Source of the DNA: Candidatus Saccharimonadales bacterium
Lineage (GTDB): Bacteria; Patescibacteriota; Saccharimonadia; QS-5-54-17
Reading direction: 5' to 3'
DNA length: 64,000 nucleotides
NCBI GenBank assembly: GCA_040876925.1
Contig: JBBDOS010000005.1
Span: 40,815-104,814, forward strand
Positions 1-51,654 of this stretch are shown here, one piece after another. Position numbers and translations under genes: made by a program. The notes under the pieces were generated by a model. The model saw only the letters and a program-made list of their open reading frames with translations, made no database searches and was not told the origin of the DNA. Within the stretch, counting starts at the first letter, position 1; the number at the start of each line of letters is the position of its first letter.

Positions 1-1994
1 TTCTGATTCTTAGATATAACTGATTGAGCGGCCGTTAATATGGATTTGGTTGAACGGTAGTTTTGCTCTAGCTTGACAACTTTAGCGTTTGGATAGTCCC
101 GCTCAAAATCGAGGATGTTACGGAAGTTAGCACCTCTCCATGAATATACCGAATTATGAACAACTATGCCTGATGCTGAGTAGTTATGAACATTCTCAAC
201 ATCAAGATCATAGACAGGCCCCATATAGTATTGTCGATTGACTTCTATTACTTTGTCTTCCTTAACCACACCTCTATCAATAATAGGAACATACATATCT
301 GGATGAATGTGACTTGCAGGAGTGAAGATAAACTTATTATTAGTTATGAAAGCATACTTATTTATTATCATTTTATCTGAATCTACGCTCTGCAACCTAT
401 CTACTATGCTTTCGATTTTGCCATAATCTAGATGATGGATCTCTGTTCTGTATGTATCAGCTCTACCCGATCTTACGGTATAACCAGATTCTTCAATAAT
501 ATTTAAGTCAGACTTATCTGCGGTATTTATAGAAATTCTACTAGCTGACCACGGGCTTTGGCTTGTCTGACGTTTATCGCCAAACAAAACTACATTTAAG
601 TTAATTCTTTTTGTTTGATTCCTAGTAGTGGCTTGAGGAATAAAGTGGGGATAGTCGAATTTTATATCTAAATCCCGCATTAAATTATCTGCTCCACTAT
701 GGGTATCTATTTCTTGATATATTGCATCAATATATTCTTGGCTTATACTGGTTGAGCTATAGCTACCTGCACGAAAAACTAGCATAGGAATATTATATTT
801 ATAGGAAAAACGCAACTCATTATAGGCAGCTTCTTCTTTACTACTACATATCTTTAGTACCCACATCCTCTCCGCTCTCTCTTGATTGGCTCTAACTCTT
901 AAACCAATGTCGTTCTTTTTACCATCATACCTAGTCCCCTTAGCTATTCCTATGCGATAGCCTTTTTCTCTAGAAAACATCAAGTAAACAAAGAAGTTAT
1001 CTGTCTTATCCCACCTGGAGAATAGAATATGATTTGGCGTGCAGTAAATTTGCTTACCGGAAGCAGTCTTAATATGGACCAATTCTCCTTTATAATTGAA
1101 TTTCCTTTTCCTCTCAACTTTAAAATATTCTGATTTACCATAACCAGAGGAGGACCTAACTATATCTCCCCTGCCAACATCTTTTATTTTTATAGACCCG
1201 GAATCAGTTTCTACTAAACTATCTGGATGCAAACACTGCCAGTCATCTCCGACTACGCATATATTCTTATGAGTCTTTGCTAATAGCTTAACGAACTGAT
1301 ATTGGGCATGGTTAGTATCTTGGTACTCATCTACTAGTATGTATTTGAATCTATCCCGCCATCTCTGCAATGTCTCAGGATTTGTTTCAAACATCCTGAC
1401 TGTTTTCAATAACAGATCATCAAAATCCAAAGCTTGAGCTTGGGCGAGTAGTCTTTGGTAGGCCGGATAAACTTCAGCTGCCACCTCCTGCAGAGGGCCT
1501 GAAGTTAAAGAGGGATAAGAATCACTATCTATCAACTCATTTTTAGCTGATGATATTAAAGACTTAATAGCGTTAGGGTTAAAACGTTTCTCGTCTATAC
1601 CCATACCTCTCATGACCTGCTTAATGGCTTGTAAGCTATCACTGGAGTCAAAGATAACGAACTGCCTTGATAGCCCTATATTCTCTGCTTCTTGTCGTAA
1701 TATGCGTACACAGATACCGTGAAAGGTTCCTAAGAAAGGCATGAAGGAACGGTTGTTCTGATTTTCACCACAAAGAGCGGCTACTCGCTGGCGCATCTCA
1801 CCAGCTGCTTTATTGGTGAAGGTAACTGCTAATATATCGCCCTCTGTAGCTAAGCCTTGGTCTAATATATAGGCTATGCGGTGGGTCAGTGTCTTAGTCT
1901 TGCCACTACCGGCCCCAGCTAATATTAATAGGGGGCCTTTAGTGTGCTTAACAGCTTCTTTTTGTTTATCGTTTAAGTTTTTGAATAAATCCAC
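1..1994 (-). CDS. UvrD/PcrA/Rep-family DNA helicase, partial: the 3' end runs off the window start. It is interrupted in-frame by an intein (153-1235). A GTG start at 1994 follows an in-frame TAA.
   Basis: Minus-strand translation from GTG at 1994 gives VDLFKNLNDKQKEAVKHTKGPLLILAGAGSGKT (Walker A), TFTNKAAGEMRQR (motif Ia), ILVDEYQDTNHAQY (motif II) and VVGDDWQ / SVYSWRGANF (motif III, split by the intein). The C-terminal part continues with NYRSTKSIL. The N-extein is exactly 253 codons. There are no internal stops in 1-1994. It is absent from the ORF track because no stop codon lies inside the window. Confidence 0.85.
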   Translation of the reverse strand, partial: MDLFKNLNDKQKEAVKHTKGPLLILAGAGSGKTKTLTHRIAYILDQGLATEGDILAVTFTNKAAGEMRQRVAALCGENQNNRSFMPFLGTFHGICVRILRQEAENIGLSRQFVIFDSSDSLQAIKQVMRGMGIDEKRFNPNAIKSLISSAKNELIDSDSYPSLTSGPLQEVAAEVYPAYQRLLAQAQALDFDDLLLKTVRMFETNPETLQRWRDRFKYILVDEYQDTNHAQYQFVKLLAKTHKNICVVGDDWQCLHPDSLVETDSGSIKIKDVGRGDIVRSSSGYGKSEYFKVERKRKFNYKGELVHIKTASGKQIYCTPNHILFSRWDKTDNFFVYLMFSREKGYRIGIAKGTRYDGKKNDIGLRVRANQERAERMWVLKICSSKEEAAYNELRFSYKYNIPMLVFRAGSYSSTSISQEYIDAIYQEIDTHSGADNLMRDLDIKFDYPHFIPQATTRNQTKRINLNVVLFGDKRQTSQSPWSASRISINTADKSDLNIIEESGYTVRSGRADTYRTEIHHLDYGKIESIVDRLQSVDSDKMIINKYAFITNNKFIFTPASHIHPDMYVPIIDRGVVKEDKVIEVNRQYYMGPVYDLDVENVHNYSASGIVVHNSVYSWRGANFRNILDFERDYPNAKVVKLEQNYRSTKSILTAAQSVISKNQ
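153..1235 (-). mobile_element. Intein (361 aa) inserted in UvrD helicase motif III, with a central domain of about 230 aa that is a probable (possibly degenerate) homing-endonuclease region
   Basis: Splice junctions VVGDDWQ|CLHPDSLVETDSGSIKIKDV (Cys1, block A) and ...VYDLDVENVHNYSASGIVVHN|SVYSWRGA (block F/G, terminal His-Asn followed by a +1 Ser). Block B TPNH is at residues 66-69. Length is 1083 nt, an exact multiple of 3, so the extein frame is preserved. Rejoining the exteins gives the canonical motif III GDDWQSVYSWRGA. Confidence 0.8.
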
Positions 1995-2451: not shown

Positions 2452-3060
2452 TTAAAACCAATCAAATATAATGCCGGCACCTTCCCTAGCCTGCTCTAAT
2501 TGATAAAGCATTATTAGCCCAGCTATTAGTGATGATAAGAAAACAAAGACAACCACCCAGAAACGCCTAGAACTAAATACACTGACCTTGTAGCTAGAAG
2601 GTTTTTTTGTCTTTAGCTGCTGCTTTTGCTTCTTTCGTCTGCTTGATCTAGCTATATCAGAGAAATCGCCAGACTGATCTATATCTTCATCTAAGTCCAT
2701 CCGACTGCTATATATATCCTCTACTGAGAAATCTTCTTCCTCTACTTGCTGCAATTTGGACTGTGTTTCATCATCTTTAACTACACCCCTATTACCATGG
2801 TCGCTATCTATGTTGTCTTTGCCTGATATATCAGCTGTGGCTACACCTGAGCCTGCACCAGATCCTGTTCCATAGCCACCACCGCCATAGCCAGTTGTAC
2901 GAATAACCTTCTCCTGCGAGCGAGCTTGTTGCGGTTGGGACTTATTAGTATCTGATTTGGCGGATAGCCTGCTATCTTGACTGCTTTGCTTAGCTGGTGA
3001 TTTCTTGCTGTCTATTTTGATATCTATTTTCTGAGAATCTTCACTGCTCATCACCATCAT
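2452..3060 (-). CDS. Hypothetical low-complexity, Ser/Gln/Gly-rich protein with a single C-terminal TM anchor
   Basis: ORF track 202 aa. Disordered N-terminal region with a GYGGGGYGTGSGAGSG stretch and a C-terminal hydrophobic helix FWVVVFVFLSSLIAGLIMLY. Overlaps the tpiA stop by 20 nt (MMVM alternative starts). No recognisable family. Confidence 0.4.
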   Translation of the reverse strand: MMVMSSEDSQKIDIKIDSKKSPAKQSSQDSRLSAKSDTNKSQPQQARSQEKVIRTTGYGGGGYGTGSGAGSGVATADISGKDNIDSDHGNRGVVKDDETQSKLQQVEEEDFSVEDIYSSRMDLDEDIDQSGDFSDIARSSRRKKQKQQLKTKKPSSYKVSVFSSRRFWVVVFVFLSSLIAGLIMLYQLEQAREGAGIIFDWF

Positions 3061-3829
3061 CCGTTAATAGGTTGGTTGTTTGGACTATCTTGGTAAATTC
3101 ATGATCATTAAGAGAAGCTCCACCGACCAATAGACCGTTGATAGAGTCAATATTTAGATAGCTACCGGCACTATCACCGTTAACGCTGCCACCATATATA
3201 ACGCGTATGCCACTAGTAGCATCAGCTCCAAACATCTGAGCGGTTGTAGATCTAATGGTTGCTGCAGCTGATATAACATCGTCTTCTTTGGCATTTTCGC
3301 CAGTGCCAATAGCCCAAACCGGCTCATAGGCGATGATAATATCCTTAGCTTCTGAGGCTGTAATCATAGTTAGCCCAGTAGATAGCTGATCGTTGATCAC
3401 TTGAGTAGTCTCACCGTGATGTCGTTCCTGCGCGGTTTCTCCAACACAAACTATTGGCGTAATACCGCTGCGCAAAGCTGCAGCTGTTTTTCTAGCTACC
3501 ATTTCATTAGTCTCACCAAAGTTATGTCGCCTTTCAGAATGACCGATGATAGCATACTGAACTAAATCTTTAACCTGAGAGGCTGATATCTCTCCTGTGT
3601 AGGCTCCTTCATCAGCGAAATATATATTCTGCACACCTATAGATAGACTTGGGGAGGCTGAGGATACATCGTGCAGAGCGATAGCTGATGGGCAGAGCAC
3701 TACTTCAGCTCTCTCAACTAAATCAGCTAATGAGTCTTCTAGTTTTTCCGCTAAGTCACGAGACTGGTTAACGCTTAAATGCATCTTCCAGTTGCCTATT
3801 ACTATTGGTTTTCTTAAGTCGTTTGCCAT
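3041..3829 (-). CDS. tpiA: Triosephosphate isomerase
   Basis: IVIGNWKMH, GHSERR and AYEPVWAIGTG signature motifs; 262 aa. Confidence 0.93.
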   Translation of the reverse strand: MANDLRKPIVIGNWKMHLSVNQSRDLAEKLEDSLADLVERAEVVLCPSAIALHDVSSASPSLSIGVQNIYFADEGAYTGEISASQVKDLVQYAIIGHSERRHNFGETNEMVARKTAAALRSGITPIVCVGETAQERHHGETTQVINDQLSTGLTMITASEAKDIIIAYEPVWAIGTGENAKEDDVISAAATIRSTTAQMFGADATSGIRVIYGGSVNGDSAGSYLNIDSINGLLVGGASLNDHEFTKIVQTTNLLTDDGDEQ

Positions 3830-3904
3830 ATTGTTTTTTGCACCTTAATCTTTATGTTTAAATCATAACATGAAGACACAAGCTTGTGGAACATCTCACC
3901 TTAG

Positions 3905-4144
3905 ATGCTAGCCCGAACATGGTATAATATGAGTATGGGTAATAAAGAAAAAAAATCTAGTATAGTTATGAATAAAACAAAACAGGATCGTGTCGAAGCT
4001 GTTAGTCAAGCGATTGCAAACGAGCGTCTTGAAGGTTTAGAGGTATCAAAAGAATCTCGCAAAATTGCAGGTGACTATATAGCCGGTAAGGCATCGGCGA
4101 AACAAGTTGCTAAAAAAATACGAGCACGTTACGGAGCTTTGTAG
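3905..4144 (+). CDS. Fic antitoxin (VbhA/FicA-like) with inhibitory-helix motif. The true start is probably an internal ATG (3935 or 3968).
   Basis: Contains AIANERLEGLE, closely matching the VbhA inhibitory motif ALASQRLEGLE ((S/T)xxxE(G/N), with N in place of S/T). Small basic protein. The stop TAG overlaps the GTG start of the downstream Fic gene (TAGTG). Confidence 0.65.
   Translation: MLARTWYNMSMGNKEKKSSIVMNKTKQDRVEAVSQAIANERLEGLEVSKESRKIAGDYIAGKASAKQVAKKIRARYGAL
3920..3928 (+). promoter_or_regulatory. Extended -10 promoter element TGGTATAAT upstream of the Fic antitoxin/toxin pair. It implies a very short leader or leaderless transcript starting near the ATG at 3935.
   Basis: TGnTATAAT at 3920-3928. 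No good -35 at 17 bp spacing. ATG codons at 3929 and 3935. Confidence 0.4.
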
Positions 4145-4743
4145 TGTCAGATTTCGTCGATCCATACTTCGACGATAGTATTAACACATTGCACAATCTT
4201 CTTGGCGCAAAATCTCCTGATGAGCTAGATGAGCTTGAAGCACAGATTGTCTTCGCCAATGAACTAGAGTTAAATGAGATTGACTTGCCTCGCACAAACG
4301 ACTTGGCAGAATTATTAGCTATACATAAGCAACTCTTTGGAAATGTCTATGACTGGGCTGGTCAGATTCGCACTGTTGATATTAAGAAGAATGAAGAAGA
4401 CTCTGAGTACTTCCTGATTGTTAGTAAAATTATAGATGCAGCAAACTATGTCTTTAGCGAGCTTGCTCAAGAAGATTATCTACAGAACTTACCTATTGAT
4501 AAATTTATTAAACGACTGGCATACTTCTATGACCAATTAAATTATATCCATCCATTTAGAGAGGGCAATGGTCGTGCTCAGCGCATATTTTGGGCACTAG
4601 TTGCCCGCGACGCTGGTTATGAAGTCTTGTGGGATAAAGTTGTTGGTAGTGAGAATGATGAAGCTTCACGATTAGCCGCAGAAAGTATGGATTTATCAGC
4701 ATTAATAACTATGCTTTCAAAGATAGTTATATCGTTGCGCTAA
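4144..4743 (+). CDS. Fic-domain protein (class I Fic toxin, adenylyltransferase/AMPylase family)
   Basis: Canonical Fic motif HPFREGNGRAQR (HxFx(D/E)GNGRxxR). GTG start overlaps the antitoxin stop by 1 nt. 199 aa. Confidence 0.85.
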   Translation: MSDFVDPYFDDSINTLHNLLGAKSPDELDELEAQIVFANELELNEIDLPRTNDLAELLAIHKQLFGNVYDWAGQIRTVDIKKNEEDSEYFLIVSKIIDAANYVFSELAQEDYLQNLPIDKFIKRLAYFYDQLNYIHPFREGNGRAQRIFWALVARDAGYEVLWDKVVGSENDEASRLAAESMDLSALITMLSKIVISLR

Positions 4744-4792: not shown

Positions 4793-6007
4793 TCAAGTCT
4801 CTAGAGACGTAATACCCGGTAATTCCTCACCTGTCATTAAATCAAGAGCTGCACCACCGCCAGTAGACACCCAAGAAAAGTCATCTATCATACCAAGTTG
4901 TTGAATAAATCCGGCCGTATCACCACCGCCAACTATGGAAGAAGCTTCTGATTCCACAATAGCTTCGGCCAACTTGTGAGAGCTCTTAGCAAATTCTGGT
5001 AGTTCTATCATGCCTAGTGGCCCGTTCCAAATAATAGTTTCAGCTGATTGGACTATCTTAATAGCCCCTTCAAGAGATTCCGGTCCAAAATCAAGCACAA
5101 TATCATCTTCACTAATGACTGAGATGGGTATAACTTTAGCTTTTTCATCCGGAGAAATATCTTTACCAACCGCTATATCATCGCGTGGGAGATAGATAAA
5201 ATCTCTCACCCTACTATCACTATAGTCATCTGGATTATCCTCGGCCTTAACACCGAACTTCTCAGCTATAGTTGCATATATATCAGCAATTTCTCTTGCC
5301 ATATTATCCTCGTGTAAGCTTTTACCAATAGTGGAGACGTCATGCTCGGGAGAATTAATTAGAAAGGTATTGGCCATACCGCCACCAATAATTAAACGAT
5401 CTACTTTAGGTATTAGAGAGTGTAATACTTTCAACTTATCGCTAATCTTAGCCCCACCGACAATAGCTACTAATGGTCGCTTAGGATTTTCTATGGAGTC
5501 GGTTATAGTATTAACTTCTTTCTCCAATAACAACCCTGCCACGGCCGGTAAGAACTTGGTTATAGCTACAGTAGATGCATGGGCTCTATGCACTACACCG
5601 AAACCATCTTGGACAAAAACATCTCCTAAACCAGCTATCTGCTTAGCGAAATTATCATCATTACTTTCCTCACCCGGCCAAAAGCGCAAATTCTCTAGTA
5701 GAGTTATTTGAGACGTACTATCTACATCCTCAAGATCAGCAACAAAAGCTACTGGCTGTTTCACGAGGCTGCTTAAATGCTTGGCTACATTTTGCAGTGA
5801 GTACTGAGGATCTGGTTTACCCTCAGGCCTACCAAGATGACTGATAATAACAACTTGGCAATCTTGTTTGATTAGGTATTCTAAAGTAGGTAGTCCTTGA
5901 ATAATCCTGTAATCATCAGTTATCTCGCCGTTATCAGTTGGCACGTTATAGTCAGCTCGAAGTATTACCTTCTTGCCTTTAACATCTATGTCTTTGATAG
6001 TCTTCAT
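4793..6007 (-). CDS. pgk: Phosphoglycerate kinase
   Basis: N-terminus KKVILRADYNVP and 404 aa PGK-type domains. 4-nt ATGA overlap with the upstream pyk. Confidence 0.92.
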   Translation of the reverse strand: MKTIKDIDVKGKKVILRADYNVPTDNGEITDDYRIIQGLPTLEYLIKQDCQVVIISHLGRPEGKPDPQYSLQNVAKHLSSLVKQPVAFVADLEDVDSTSQITLLENLRFWPGEESNDDNFAKQIAGLGDVFVQDGFGVVHRAHASTVAITKFLPAVAGLLLEKEVNTITDSIENPKRPLVAIVGGAKISDKLKVLHSLIPKVDRLIIGGGMANTFLINSPEHDVSTIGKSLHEDNMAREIADIYATIAEKFGVKAEDNPDDYSDSRVRDFIYLPRDDIAVGKDISPDEKAKVIPISVISEDDIVLDFGPESLEGAIKIVQSAETIIWNGPLGMIELPEFAKSSHKLAEAIVESEASSIVGGGDTAGFIQQLGMIDDFSWVSTGGGAALDLMTGEELPGITSLET

Positions 6008-7416
6008 GATATCTCTCGGACCTTAATAGTATCAGTCCCACCGGCTACTCCTGGATTTTCTCCATAAGTTAGTACCACCATATCCTTAGGTCTTAAGTTG
6101 CCATGCTTCTTCAGATCCTTGATGGCTTTTTCTCCAGCGCCCTTAGGGCTTTTGTAGTAGAAAGACTTACCGCCATAGACTATAGCTAGCTGTTGAGCTA
6201 CTTTTCTGTTAGTTGTAGCCATGATAATGGGCATCTGAGGTCTATGAGAGGCGATATTACGAGCTGTACGACCAGATGCGGTCTCTGCCACTATCATCTT
6301 GGCTTTGAGCTGGTGAGCTAGAGTTATAGCTGCTGAGGCAATAGCACTGCCCTGAGAGTCATCTTCCATATTTATATACAGCGGCTCTACGGGAGAGTTA
6401 GATTCAGTGTAGAGACTAACTCTCTTCATTAGCTGGACTGATTCTACTGGGTACTTACCAGAATTAGTTTCATCAGATAACATCAAACAATCAGCTCCGC
6501 AGATTACAGCTGTAGCAATATCTGATACTTCAGCTCTGGTTGGCTGCGGGGAGTCAGTCATCGAAGCTAGCATTTGAGTAGCCACTATAGCAATCTTGCC
6601 ATATTTTTGGGCTAGACCTATGATCTTCCGCTGCAAGATAGGTACAACCTCCGGACCTACTTCTATGGCTAAATCACCTCTAGCTATCATGACTCCGTCA
6701 CTAACAACTGTAATCTCATCAATGTTATCAGCTCCAGCCTTAGTCTCAATCTTGGCAATTATTTTAATGTCTTCACCACCATGCTCATCTAGATAGCTGC
6801 GTAACTGATTAATATCGGCAGCCTTTTGCACAAAAGACATAGCTATATAGTCGGCTTCACTACTAATAGCGAAGTTAATATCTTCGTAATCTTTGGTTGT
6901 TAAAATATCACCGCCTAGATCGGTATCTGGTAGATTAATACCTTTTCTAGAAGTTAGCTTGCCACCAGTTATGACTTTGGTATTAATTACGCCCTTATCT
7001 ACCCCTATAACCTCTACCTCTAGTTTGCCATCGAAGAGGTATATTGACTCACCCGGCTTGATTTTATCTGCAAAATCATGCTGCAGAGGAATCACGCCAT
7101 CGCTTAAGTAGCTAGCTCCATGAGCAAATCTCACTTGATCACCAACTGGGATCTCTACACCCTCTTTAGGTAGTTCACCTATACGTATTTTGGGTCCTTG
7201 CAGATCAACGATGATAGCAATAGGTTTACCTATCTCTTCTGATGCTGACCGAGCATTATTAATATGTTGCTGATGGCTCTCATGGGTGCCATGAGATAGG
7301 TTCAATCTTACGCCATTTACTCCAGCCTCTATTAGCTGTTTAACAACCTTGGGGTCTTCTGTAGATGGTCCGAAACTGGCAATTATTTTAGTACGTTTGA
7401 ATTTTACTTCTTTCAT
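6004..7416 (-). CDS. pyk: Pyruvate kinase
   Basis: KIIASFGPST, NGVRLNLSHG, DLQGPKIR, MVARGDLAIE motifs. 470 aa. Confidence 0.92.
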   Translation of the reverse strand: MKEVKFKRTKIIASFGPSTEDPKVVKQLIEAGVNGVRLNLSHGTHESHQQHINNARSASEEIGKPIAIIVDLQGPKIRIGELPKEGVEIPVGDQVRFAHGASYLSDGVIPLQHDFADKIKPGESIYLFDGKLEVEVIGVDKGVINTKVITGGKLTSRKGINLPDTDLGGDILTTKDYEDINFAISSEADYIAMSFVQKAADINQLRSYLDEHGGEDIKIIAKIETKAGADNIDEITVVSDGVMIARGDLAIEVGPEVVPILQRKIIGLAQKYGKIAIVATQMLASMTDSPQPTRAEVSDIATAVICGADCLMLSDETNSGKYPVESVQLMKRVSLYTESNSPVEPLYINMEDDSQGSAIASAAITLAHQLKAKMIVAETASGRTARNIASHRPQMPIIMATTNRKVAQQLAIVYGGKSFYYKSPKGAGEKAIKDLKKHGNLRPKDMVVLTYGENPGVAGGTDTIKVREIS

Positions 7417-7479: not shown

Positions 7480-7557
7480 TGGTGACCCCGGCGGGATTTG
7501 AACCCGCGTTGCCAGGATGAAAACCTGGTGTCCTGGACCGGGCTAGACGACGGGGCC
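7480..7557 (-). tRNA. tRNA-Glu (anticodon UUC), CCA encoded
   Basis: Reverse complement GGCCCCGTCGTCTAGCCCGGTCCAGGACACCAGGTTTTCATCCTGGCAACGCGGGTTCAAATCCCGCCGGGGTCACCA. Cloverleaf with anticodon loop TTTTCAT. Close to canonical bacterial tRNA-Glu. Confidence 0.85.
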
Positions 7558-40762: not shown

Positions 40763-41365
40763 ATGAAATATAAATACGGTTCAAATTTTCAACAGTTAAT
40801 TAGCTCACCAGAAAAATTACAGAATCTTTTAGTAAACTGTTCTTTTTCCGGATCATTTAAGGCATGGGAGCAACGCAAGGCTTTTATAGCTAATTCCATT
40901 CATAAAGATGGTACTTTTTTAGATATCGGCTGTGGCAATGGCTTTTTACTGTGTTGTCTGCAAGAATGGTCAGAATTCCAGATAACTCCTTATGGGATTG
41001 ATATAAACGAAAAATTCATAGAGGAAGCGAAAGAACTTTTTCCGAGTCGAAAAGACAATTTCGCAGCTCTAGATGCTAAAGACATCAAAGACATTTCAGC
41101 CTATCTACCGAAGCAGTACGATTTCATTTTTTTCAGTAGCAACTGGATAAACATAAAGCCGGATTATCATAATAAAAAGCAGTTAGAGAATTTACTTAAC
41201 TATTTAGAACCAGGTGGCCGGTTTATTGTCGGCTTTTATGCCCAAGATAAAGATGTCAATCTAGAAACACTAAAAGAATTCAAATCACTCGGCATAAATT
41301 TTGATAAAACCCTGGAAAACGCTAAAGACACGAACCTAGTAGCATGGATAAATAAAACACCATAA
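40763..41365 (+). CDS. Class I SAM-dependent methyltransferase
   Basis: Motif I FLDIGCGNGFLL. Acidic residue about 20 aa downstream (GIDIN). No DPPY/NPPF DNA-amino-MTase motif seen. Confidence 0.7.
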   Translation: MKYKYGSNFQQLISSPEKLQNLLVNCSFSGSFKAWEQRKAFIANSIHKDGTFLDIGCGNGFLLCCLQEWSEFQITPYGIDINEKFIEEAKELFPSRKDNFAALDAKDIKDISAYLPKQYDFIFFSSNWINIKPDYHNKKQLENLLNYLEPGGRFIVGFYAQDKDVNLETLKEFKSLGINFDKTLENAKDTNLVAWINKTP

Positions 41366-50954: not shown

Positions 50955-50985
50955 TGCTTATTAGTATAACTGGTATAATGGCTTA

Positions 50986-51654
50986 ATGGCAAAAGACCAG
51001 GAAGAAATCAAAAACATTGAAGATATAGAGAAGAAGACTTTTTTTTTGCGCATAATTACCTGGCCCTCTAGAAGTATCAGGCGAGTTTACGCTTGGATGA
51101 TGAAATGGGGTGATAGTCCGCAAGCAGAGAAAGCTCTTTTTGGGTTCTCTTTTGTAGAAAGCTCCTTCTTCCCTATACCTCCAGACCCACTGCTAATTAC
51201 TATGGTCATAGCTAATGTCAAGAAATGGCTGAGGTTTGCCTTAATTACGACTATCGCTTCTGTAATTGGTGCTGTACTTGGTTACGTGATAGGTTTGCTA
51301 GCCTATGAGACTATCGGTAAATCTATTGTTGATTTTTACAACCTAGAGGAGGAGTTTAGGCTAGTAGGACAGCAGTACGGGCAAAATGCTTTCTGGACTA
51401 TATTGGTAGTTGGATTTACTCCTATACCTTATAAAGTATTTACCATTGCTAGTGGAGTTTTCACTATCAATATCATCACTCTACTAGTTGCTTCTCTAAT
51501 CGGTAGAGGCGGTAGGTTTATCATAGTAGCTTTTCTAGCCAAGACGCTAGGGGCTAGATACAAGGATAAGATAGAGCGCTATATAGATGTTTTGGGGCTC
51601 TTGTTCCTGGGCCTAATAATAGCTGGGTTCGTAGTTATAAAGTATATTATCTAG
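50986..51654 (+). CDS. DedA/YqaA-family (SNARE-associated) membrane protein
   Basis: FVESSFFPIPPDPLLI motif. Confidence 0.7.
   Translation: MAKDQEEIKNIEDIEKKTFFLRIITWPSRSIRRVYAWMMKWGDSPQAEKALFGFSFVESSFFPIPPDPLLITMVIANVKKWLRFALITTIASVIGAVLGYVIGLLAYETIGKSIVDFYNLEEEFRLVGQQYGQNAFWTILVVGFTPIPYKVFTIASGVFTINIITLLVASLIGRGGRFIIVAFLAKTLGARYKDKIERYIDVLGLLFLGLIIAGFVVIKYII

Follow-up and report, generated by a model that had tools for sequence, protein, structure and literature searches.

A predicted class I Fic toxin-antitoxin cassette antisense between pgk and tpiA in a Candidatus Saccharimonadales genome

The sequence analyzed here, referred to as the window, is a stretch of 64,000 nucleotides (nt) from contig JBBDOS010000005.1 of a Candidatus Saccharimonadales bacterium (assembly GCA_040876925.1, forward-strand positions 40,815 to 104,814). 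Near its start, a gene for a small VbhA-family protein and a gene for a Fic protein of 199 amino acids (aa) lie between pgk and tpiA. Both genes of the pair are on the plus strand and tpiA, pgk and pyk are all on the minus strand (Table 1), which is the antisense placement described in an original prediction made from this DNA. We consider a chromosomal cassette of the class I FicTA kind, a type II toxin-antitoxin (TA) system, to be the best explanation of the pair, and we hold this reading with good confidence. The general identity of the genes is already known: the source record carries the label 'Fic family protein' and relatives of the small protein are labeled 'Antitoxin VbhA'. The mechanism and target are proposed by analogy with relatives that are ~40% identical. 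Our analysis refines existing knowledge and opens no new question. The refinements are a putatively leaderless promoter geometry with an antitoxin start at position 3935, an NxxxEG variant of the inhibitory motif, a scar-free and lineage-specific insertion, an affinity to actinobacterial plasmid genes, and strong purifying selection.

Table 1 Features of the cassette and of the adjoining glycolytic genes (positions count from the first base of the window)
Feature	Position	Strand	Remarks
tpiA (triose-phosphate isomerase), intact	3041..3829	-	Pfam TIM; downstream of the insertion
Candidate sigma-70-type promoter, TCCACA-17-TATGAT with upstream TG	3862..3890	-	Consensus scan; could drive tpiA independently of pgk
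Antitoxin open reading frame (ORF) in the program-made list	3905-4144	+	Contains IANERLEGLE
Extended -10 element TGGTATAAT	3920..3928	+	Followed by ATGAGT (6 nt) and ATG 3935
VbhA/FicA-family antitoxin gene	3935..4144	+	Likeliest start ATG 3935 (69 aa)
Inhibitory-helix motif N-E-R-L-E-G, codons	4019..4036	+	Asn variant of [S/T]xxxE[G/N]; regular expression; aligns to VbhA SQRLEG and BiaA-type THALEG
Predicted inhibitory glutamate codon	4031-4033	+	Glu of N-E-R-L-E-G
Shine-Dalgarno GGAG	4133-4136	+	7 nt upstream
Stop/start overlap TAGTG	4142-4146	+	TAG stop 4142-4144 and GTG start 4144-4146 have one base in common
Class I Fic (FicT-like) toxin gene	4144..4743	+	199 aa, GTG start
DPY motif codons (D6 P7 Y8)	4159..4167	+	Invariant in homologue alignments
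FIC active-site motif HPFREGNGRAQR	4549..4584	+	Residues 136-147; His136, R0=R139, R1=R144, R2=R147; regular expression
pgk (phosphoglycerate kinase)	4793..6007	-	Pfam PGK; convergent with the toxin gene
pyk (pyruvate kinase)	6004..7416	-	Pfam PK; first gene of the pyk-pgk-tpiA arrangement

Families and motifs of the two proteins

The toxin matches the Pfam family Fic (PF02661) with E 1.4e-14 (55.1 bits, cut-off 24) and VbhT's FIC domain in PDB entries 3shg and 3zcb with E 7e-35 (~40% identity over 169 aligned residues). Based on NCBIfam profiles, it matches VbhT (NF045983; E 9.6e-42, 143.6 bits, profile positions 7-189 of 419) and E. coli Fic (NF007672; E 3.9e-38, 131.2 bits), with scores below the respective equivalog cut-offs of 800 bits, which stands for proteins with a FIC and a BID domain, and 181 bits. 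The active-site motif agrees in full with HxFx(D/E)GNGRxxR and is invariant or nearly so in an alignment of 34 homologues. R139 and the three residues of the DPY motif, which has been described for class I Fic toxins (PMC5033356), are invariant in the same alignment.

A regular-expression search of the 199 aa of the toxin found no inhibitory motif of the form [S/T/N]xxxE[G/N]. The sole relaxed match, SENDEA at residue 169, has Ala at its last position, and homologues carry Asp at the first. The lack of an intramolecular inhibitory motif places the toxin in class I and not in class II or III. The separate small protein that characterizes class I is encoded by the upstream ORF, which matches the Pfam family VbhA (PF18495) with E 5.3e-10 (39.6 bits, cut-off 25.9). 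The original prediction had called the pair a class I Fic toxin with a perfect Fic motif, preceded by an ORF whose IANERLEGLE sequence resembles the VbhA inhibitory helix. It had proposed a profile search as a check, and had named two outcomes as contrary to it, a small ORF without homology to the helix and a Fic protein with its own inhibitory motif. With both profiles matched above their cut-offs and the inhibitory helix on the separate ORF, these claims are upheld.

NERLEG of the antitoxin aligns on THALEG or THAIEG of two antitoxin chains, 5eu0_B (named 'antitoxin 1') and 5nh2_B (named 'Uncharacterized protein'), and ASQRLEGLE of VbhA itself is confirmed in PDB chains 3shg_B, 3zc7_B and 3zcb_B. 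The published inhibitory motif is [S/T]xxxE[G/N], and its Glu is joined by a salt bridge to the FIC motif's R2 (PMC5033356). By analogy, the window antitoxin would bind the toxin, whose AMP-transferase active site is complete (His136, R1 and R2), and would set the glutamate of N-E-R-L-E-G against the FIC motif's second arginine, blocking productive ATP binding. The toxin-antitoxin complex may also undo the modification, as in Pseudomonas Fic-1-AntF. The mechanism of the family has been described in PMC5033356, PMC5675462 and PMC13327609, and from homology to VbhT and FicT the predicted activity of the toxin is AMPylation of GyrB and ParE.

The original prediction had pointed to an Asn in place of the usual Ser or Thr at the first position of the motif. 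The Asn is indeed present, but it is not peculiar to this locus. Residues N18, E22 and G23 of the antitoxin are invariant or nearly so in homologues, and within the Patescibacteria subfamily the Asn hardly varies. A search of 1.84 billion representative proteins with a VbhA-like profile gave 89 clusters, in which the first motif position is Asn in 52, Ser in 30, Thr in one and another residue in four. The Glu is kept in 81 and the Gly in 84 of the 89. As the profile was made from Asn-bearing sequences the proportion of Asn is biased, yet Asn still recurs among the most distant matches. From these alignments NxxxEG is a common natural variant of the motif, so that the locus is not aberrant and the published pattern is too narrow. 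Like Ser and Thr, Asn serves well as a helix N-cap and as a donor of hydrogen bonds, and for this reason we regard the change as probably conservative. Motif-based classification of Fic proteins should admit Asn at the first position.

Promoter, antitoxin start and translational coupling

The antitoxin-first order with a 1-nt overlap is kept in all homologous loci examined. Every homologous locus that was fetched has a 58-aa VbhA gene that ends on the first base of a Fic gene of 199-201 aa, and the junction, GGAG or GGGG followed by taGTG, is common to all of them. The window cassette has the same kind of junction, and the predicted overlap of the antitoxin stop with the toxin GTG is there. 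Together, the GGAG and the TAGTG overlap suggest translational coupling, by which the toxin would be translated along with the antitoxin.

Gene callers differ on the length of the window antitoxin, which is given as 58, 69, 71 or 79 aa; the NCBI annotation has 69 aa. The conserved 58-aa core (MNK..) starts at ATG 3968, and ATG 3935 lies in frame 33 nt upstream of it. Relative to the family, the 69-aa form carries an 11-residue N-terminal insert, GNKEKKSSIVM. An extended -10 element at a fixed distance from the start codon (TGnTATAAT-N6/7-ATG) is found in the DNA of the homologous loci L085-L092. The same geometry can be read from proteins: in 15 of 19 over-extended homologue ORFs, the residues (C/W/L/M/Y)-Y-(N/T)-x-x-M precede the true Met, which corresponds to TGnTATAAT-N6-ATG in frame. 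This family-wide geometry makes ATG 3935 the most likely start of the antitoxin, in place of 3905 or 3929. Thus, the extended -10 with essentially no leader that had been predicted is retained, and the start codon assigned to it is revised. Since the geometry puts the start of transcription at or beside the A of the ATG, the promoter would give a leaderless mRNA of both genes that begins at ATG 3935.

The support for the -10 element comes from its conservation in homologues and not from rarity in the window. TGnTATAAT alone occurs 7 times in the window against 5.9 expected, so there is no enrichment. The full arrangement TGnTATAAT-N6-ATG occurs twice against 0.16 expected, each time at the start of an ORF, which suggests that leaderless mRNAs driven by extended -10 elements are used more widely in this Saccharimonadales genome. 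The second exact copy of TGGTATAAT-N6-ATG is at 50971-50988 (+), and its ATG starts an ORF (50986-51654) for a hydrophobic protein of 222 aa that is probably a membrane protein.

Upstream of ATG 3968 only a degraded -10 is left (TCTAGT / TAGTAT). The region from 3920 to 3985 reads TGGTATAATATGAGTATGGGTAATAAAGAA.. and then, 33 nt on, TCTAGTATAGTTATGAATAAAACA.., so that the promoter-start region looks partly duplicated. The apparent partial duplication gives the in-frame N-terminal extension of 11 residues, which is absent from the other aligned members of the family. The degraded -10 may reflect such a small duplication of the promoter-start region.

Insertion into the glycolytic operon and contexts elsewhere

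The genes pyk, pgk and tpiA occur in that order and on one strand in 12 related Saccharibacteria loci. The pgk-tpiA gap is 18-61 nt in nine of the 12 and ~300-480 nt in three (L009, L010 and L013), and in these enlarged gaps no recognizable gene or TA module was found. No Fic or VbhA gene lies between pgk and tpiA in any of the 12 loci, nor in L174 or L175. L174 has the closest pgk relative (70% identical), which was found in a collection of 5.8 billion proteins, and its tpiA (MVKTLIAGNWKMN) starts ~100 nt past the pgk stop. In L175 (pgk 54% identical) the gap is 94 nt. Scans of genomes and metagenomes reached at most 51% pgk identity; the 70% and 65% matches are on very short contigs of the large protein database, and the contig of L173 ends before its pgk-tpiA gap can be judged.

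The gap in the window is 963 nt, with the cassette inside it. Because relatives, including the closest ones found, keep pgk and tpiA together without the cassette, the insertion is derived and lineage-specific, and to date it has been seen in this lineage only. Comparison with the 12 related loci and with the closest relatives thus supports the predicted interruption of an operon that is contiguous elsewhere. Homology to other cassettes extends from ~3918, at the promoter, to a point a few tens of nt beyond the stop codon of the toxin, from which the inserted unit would be ~0.85 kb and would comprise the promoter and the two genes. Such a cassette would have entered a short pgk-tpiA spacer in antisense orientation in this lineage only. 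The spacers of the window cannot be aligned with the pgk-tpiA spacers of relatives and so do not show the exact insertion point.

The window locus does not have the marks of a mobile island (direct or inverted repeats, att-like tRNA fragments and an integrase). Flanking repeats at the cassette are only short and at chance level, and neither attachment-site (att) remnants that resemble a tRNA 3' end nor a recombinase or integrase were found near it. The GC content of the cassette and its GC content at third codon positions are within the range of host genes, which says nothing on a foreign origin.

Some of the relatives have unusual pgk-tpiA junctions of their own. The enlarged spacer of L013 (5048-5400) holds a second tpiA 5' end, with MDKKLLIVGNWK encoded ~140 nt before the real start, which points to a small local duplication. 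The pgk homologues P0301 and P0304 (644 and 657 aa) have both PGK and TIM Pfam domains and are pgk-tpiA fusions, which underline the close linkage that pgk and tpiA normally have.

No terminator-like hairpin was found on either strand of the 49-nt spacer between the toxin gene and pgk, so that transcription from pgk could run on antisense through the cassette. Read-through from pgk to tpiA would produce RNA antisense to the whole cassette. The tpiA gene of the window (60% identical to that of L005) would now depend for its expression on this read-through or on a new promoter. The region has no more promoter-like sites than shuffled sequences do, so the evidence for the candidate promoter of tpiA listed in Table 1 is weak.

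An arrangement of this kind could tie the TA pair to central metabolism. High transcription of the operon, running antisense through the cassette from pyk and pgk, would silence the TA mRNA, and a drop in transcription would release it, linking a gyrase-directed AMPylase to carbon flux. A related possibility is that the Fic family of Saccharimonadales, which is unusually conserved and has its nearest plasmid relatives in the host phylum Actinomycetota, plays a part in the relationship between symbiont and host. We regard these ideas as speculative and rather improbable.

The genes around the cassette follow the order tRNA-Glu, pyk, pgk, cassette, tpiA, in which the tRNA-Glu(TTC) gene (7480-7557, -) is directly upstream of pyk on the same strand. 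The window has 11 tRNA genes in all, none of them for tRNA-Asn. An ORF at 2452-3060 (-) overlaps the tpiA stop by 20 nt and encodes a low-complexity protein of 202 aa, rich in Ser, Gln, Lys and Asp, with a C-terminal hydrophobic segment and no significant match in Pfam. Relatives likewise have an unannotated ORF across the tpiA stop (L175, 3565-4428). Further downstream of tpiA, at window positions 1-1994 (-), corresponding to L001 4696-7851, is the gene for a UvrD-type helicase of 1051 aa with an intein (Pfam Intein_splicing), which extends past the window start. L175 has a UvrD gene at the same position, cut by the end of the locus, with no intein match listed.

Outside the window, an identical toxin protein is encoded on JBBDUB010000018.1, from a Candidatus Saccharimonadales metagenome-assembled genome (GCA_040904145.1), and on three Logan contigs (SRR27977661-63). 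A total of 2475 toxin homologues were found at E <= 1e-10. The best 120 clusters are 68-82% identical to the window toxin, and the named ones are mostly from Saccharimonadales or Patescibacteria. The antitoxin has 84 homologues, most of 58 aa. These data document a well-conserved FicTA subfamily in Saccharimonadales, ultra-small symbionts whose reduced genomes make each accessory gene that is kept informative. One toxin homologue (P0075, 73% identity) has the NCBI label Candidatus Dormibacteraeota, and it could stem from a mis-binned contig or from transfer beyond Patescibacteria. A literature search found no mention of VbhA together with Saccharibacteria or Patescibacteria.

The loci with homologous cassettes have no genes in common with the window, so a comparison of housekeeping genes is not possible for them. 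In L087, L088, L091 and L092 the cassette is ~250 nt from an intact tRNA-Asn(GTT) gene, near smpB. Degenerate copies of a tRNA 3' end are found upstream of the antitoxin, and such fragments also lie between toxin and tRNA-Asn gene. This arrangement around the cassette is seen in L091 (5690-5716, 6717-6770 and 6850-6924) and also in L087, L088 and L092. One toxin protein, P0008, has three different left flanks, one of which contains a large serine recombinase and a restriction-modification pair. In L092 the left flank carries such a recombinase with restriction-modification genes of the HinfI type, and in L090 it carries an Mrr-like gene. The region looks like an integration hotspot linked to tRNA-Asn, with serial insertions.

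These neighbors bear on a possible role in defense, in which phage infection would free the Fic toxin and halt the infected cell as in abortive infection. Along with the adjoining restriction-modification genes, Mrr-like genes and recombinase of the tRNA-Asn-linked variable region, a match over the full length of the toxin to the PADLOC family PDC-S04 (E 8e-62, positions 14-202 of 209) points in this direction. However, PDC-S04 has no more than candidate status and was defined through genomic association, and in the window the neighbors of the cassette are housekeeping genes of glycolysis, with no defense genes. Relatives of the cassette were not found among the viral contigs of IMG/VR, and matches in INPHARED are distant (at most 35% identity). 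We consider an anti-phage function unlikely.

Among 72,556 plasmids, the best toxin matches (48-50% identity, 179-201 bits) are all from Actinomycetota, namely Cutibacterium, Microbacterium, Cryobacterium, Leifsonia, Kocuria and Curtobacterium. Plasmids of other phyla, in the listed sample of the other matches, do not exceed ~39% identity across most of the toxin or 130 bits. Cultivated Saccharibacteria have Actinomycetota as their hosts (PMC10633639). Since the nearest plasmid relatives come from this phylum, exchange of genes between host and symbiont is an attractive reading of the sequence comparison, and the pair offers a concrete candidate for such host-episymbiont exchange.

The same affinity might be taken to mean that the toxin is an inter-bacterial effector directed against the actinobacterial host or competitors, with the small protein as its immunity factor. 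VbhT, the closest relative with a solved structure, is delivered between bacteria (PMC5675462), and the nearest plasmid relatives belong to the usual hosts of Saccharibacteria (48-50% against at most 39% identity in other phyla). Yet the toxin is a bare FIC domain that lacks a BID domain, a signal peptide and any other domain for delivery, its flanks hold no secretion genes, and the likeness to genes of the host phylum is more simply explained by gene transfer. An effector function therefore seems very improbable to us.

Conservation, function and known systems

We compared the window cassette with its counterparts in L085, L087 and L090. Differences at synonymous sites have reached saturation (proportion of synonymous differences, pS, 0.60-0.86), and the proportion of nonsynonymous differences, pN, is 0.12-0.20. 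Where it could be estimated, the ratio of nonsynonymous to synonymous substitution rates (dN/dS) is 0.06-0.19 for both genes. By these measures the cassettes are old and strongly constrained, and not recently spread. Recent horizontal spread as the cause of the high protein identity was rejected because synonymous sites are saturated. Strong constraint argues for both proteins being functional, and it would also allow a physiological role other than addiction. In the same database, the identity of pgk drops to 46-54% after two matches, whereas the toxin stays at 68-82% over >100 clusters; this comparison is indirect, as the two lists do not come from matched genomes.

The original prediction had taken the placement of the pair as that of a selfish addiction module, a reading that sits uneasily with purifying selection of this strength and duration. 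The same selection could instead reflect a domesticated and reversible regulator, an AMPylase/deAMPylase switch that adjusts gyrase, topoisomerase IV or some other target to the physiological state and is kept for the benefit of the cell. Besides the low dN/dS with saturated dS in both genes and the contrast in conservation between toxin and pgk, two published systems are in line with it. EcFicTA is also vertically inherited and a physiological role has been suggested for it (PMC5033356), and reversible AMPylation and deAMPylation have been shown for Fic-1-AntF (PMC13327609). In contrast, the cassette is absent at this site from most related genomes, and its island-like variable contexts elsewhere fit an accessory element better. 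For this subfamily, moreover, the argument is drawn from sequence. We regard a regulatory role as possible, and as clearly the less probable reading when set against a class I TA cassette.

Several observations weigh against the class I FicTA reading itself or against its details. The antitoxin has the Glu and Gly of the published motif and departs from it at position 1. In AntF, the substitution S24A weakened binding to the toxin, and Glu28 serves both inhibition and deAMPylation (PMC13327609); with Asn at the position equivalent to Ser24, the details of binding may differ from those in AntF. An AlphaFold2 model of the toxin, based on the alignment of 34 sequences, is poor (mean predicted local distance difference test score, pLDDT, 63, with residues 30-94 below 50). 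As given above, the toxin does not reach the equivalog cut-offs of VbhT and E. coli Fic, and for this reason the target of these proteins cannot be transferred to it with confidence. There is no gyrB or parE gene in the window, so a target tyrosine cannot be checked there. Finally, an addiction module that is purely selfish would not typically be conserved so strongly over so long a time.

With these points considered, a class I FicTA cassette remains the reading that we favor, and its closest counterparts can be compared in turn. The class I prototype is VbhT/VbhA of Bartonella schoenbuchensis (3SHG, 3ZCB and 3ZC7). The window toxin has an identical HPFREGNGR core and the N-terminal DPY motif, and the window antitoxin, like VbhA, is a small protein encoded upstream, with an xxRLEGLE helix and a Pfam VbhA match. 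Unlike VbhT, the toxin lacks a C-terminal BID (type IV secretion) domain and has 199 aa against 419 profile positions. The antitoxin differs from VbhA in having Asn in place of Ser20 and an unrelated C-terminal half (KIRARYG; 22-23% identity). VbhT/VbhA is carried on a conjugative plasmid, whereas the window cassette is chromosomal in a Patescibacterium.

The pair also resembles the classical FicTA systems YeFicTA, PaFicTA and BtrFicTA and Pseudomonas Fic-1-AntF, which have a stand-alone FIC toxin of ~200 aa and an upstream antitoxin of ~60 aa. As in these systems, the AMP-transferase motif is canonical, with R1 and R2, and the antitoxin Glu lies four residues past the first position of the motif. 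The relationship is distant; a 205-aa 'Cell filamentation protein Fic' (8wt0_A) matches at E 2e-19. AntF has Ser24, which is important for binding, where the window antitoxin has Asn. Classical FicTA and Fic-1 toxins AMPylate GyrB and ParE in experiments (PMC13327609, PMC5675462), whereas the subfamily of the window is known from sequences.

E. coli EcFicT/EcFicA (Fic/YhfG; 5JFF and 5JFZ) has the same class I architecture and the DPY motif, and matches the window toxin at E 3e-28 (NCBIfam PRK10347, 131 bits). EcFicT has a degenerate motif without R1 and probably does not bind ATP (PMC5033356), whereas the window toxin keeps R1 (R144).

The plasmid pairs of Actinomycetota, such as those of Cutibacterium modestum (NZ_CP017041.1) and Cryobacterium (NZ_CP021994.1), are the remaining counterpart. 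In the pairs that were retrieved, the toxins have C-terminal tails of ~65-70 aa, unlike the window toxin. The antitoxins of these pairs carry the canonical Ser (HSGEMEG / HSAAMEG) and share only 25-31% identity with the window antitoxin, and the genes overlap by 8-14 nt against 1 nt in the window cassette. The toxins are 48-50% identical over 97% of the window toxin, and the gene order is the same in both, with the plasmid pairs annotated 'antitoxin VbhA family protein' and 'Fic family protein'.

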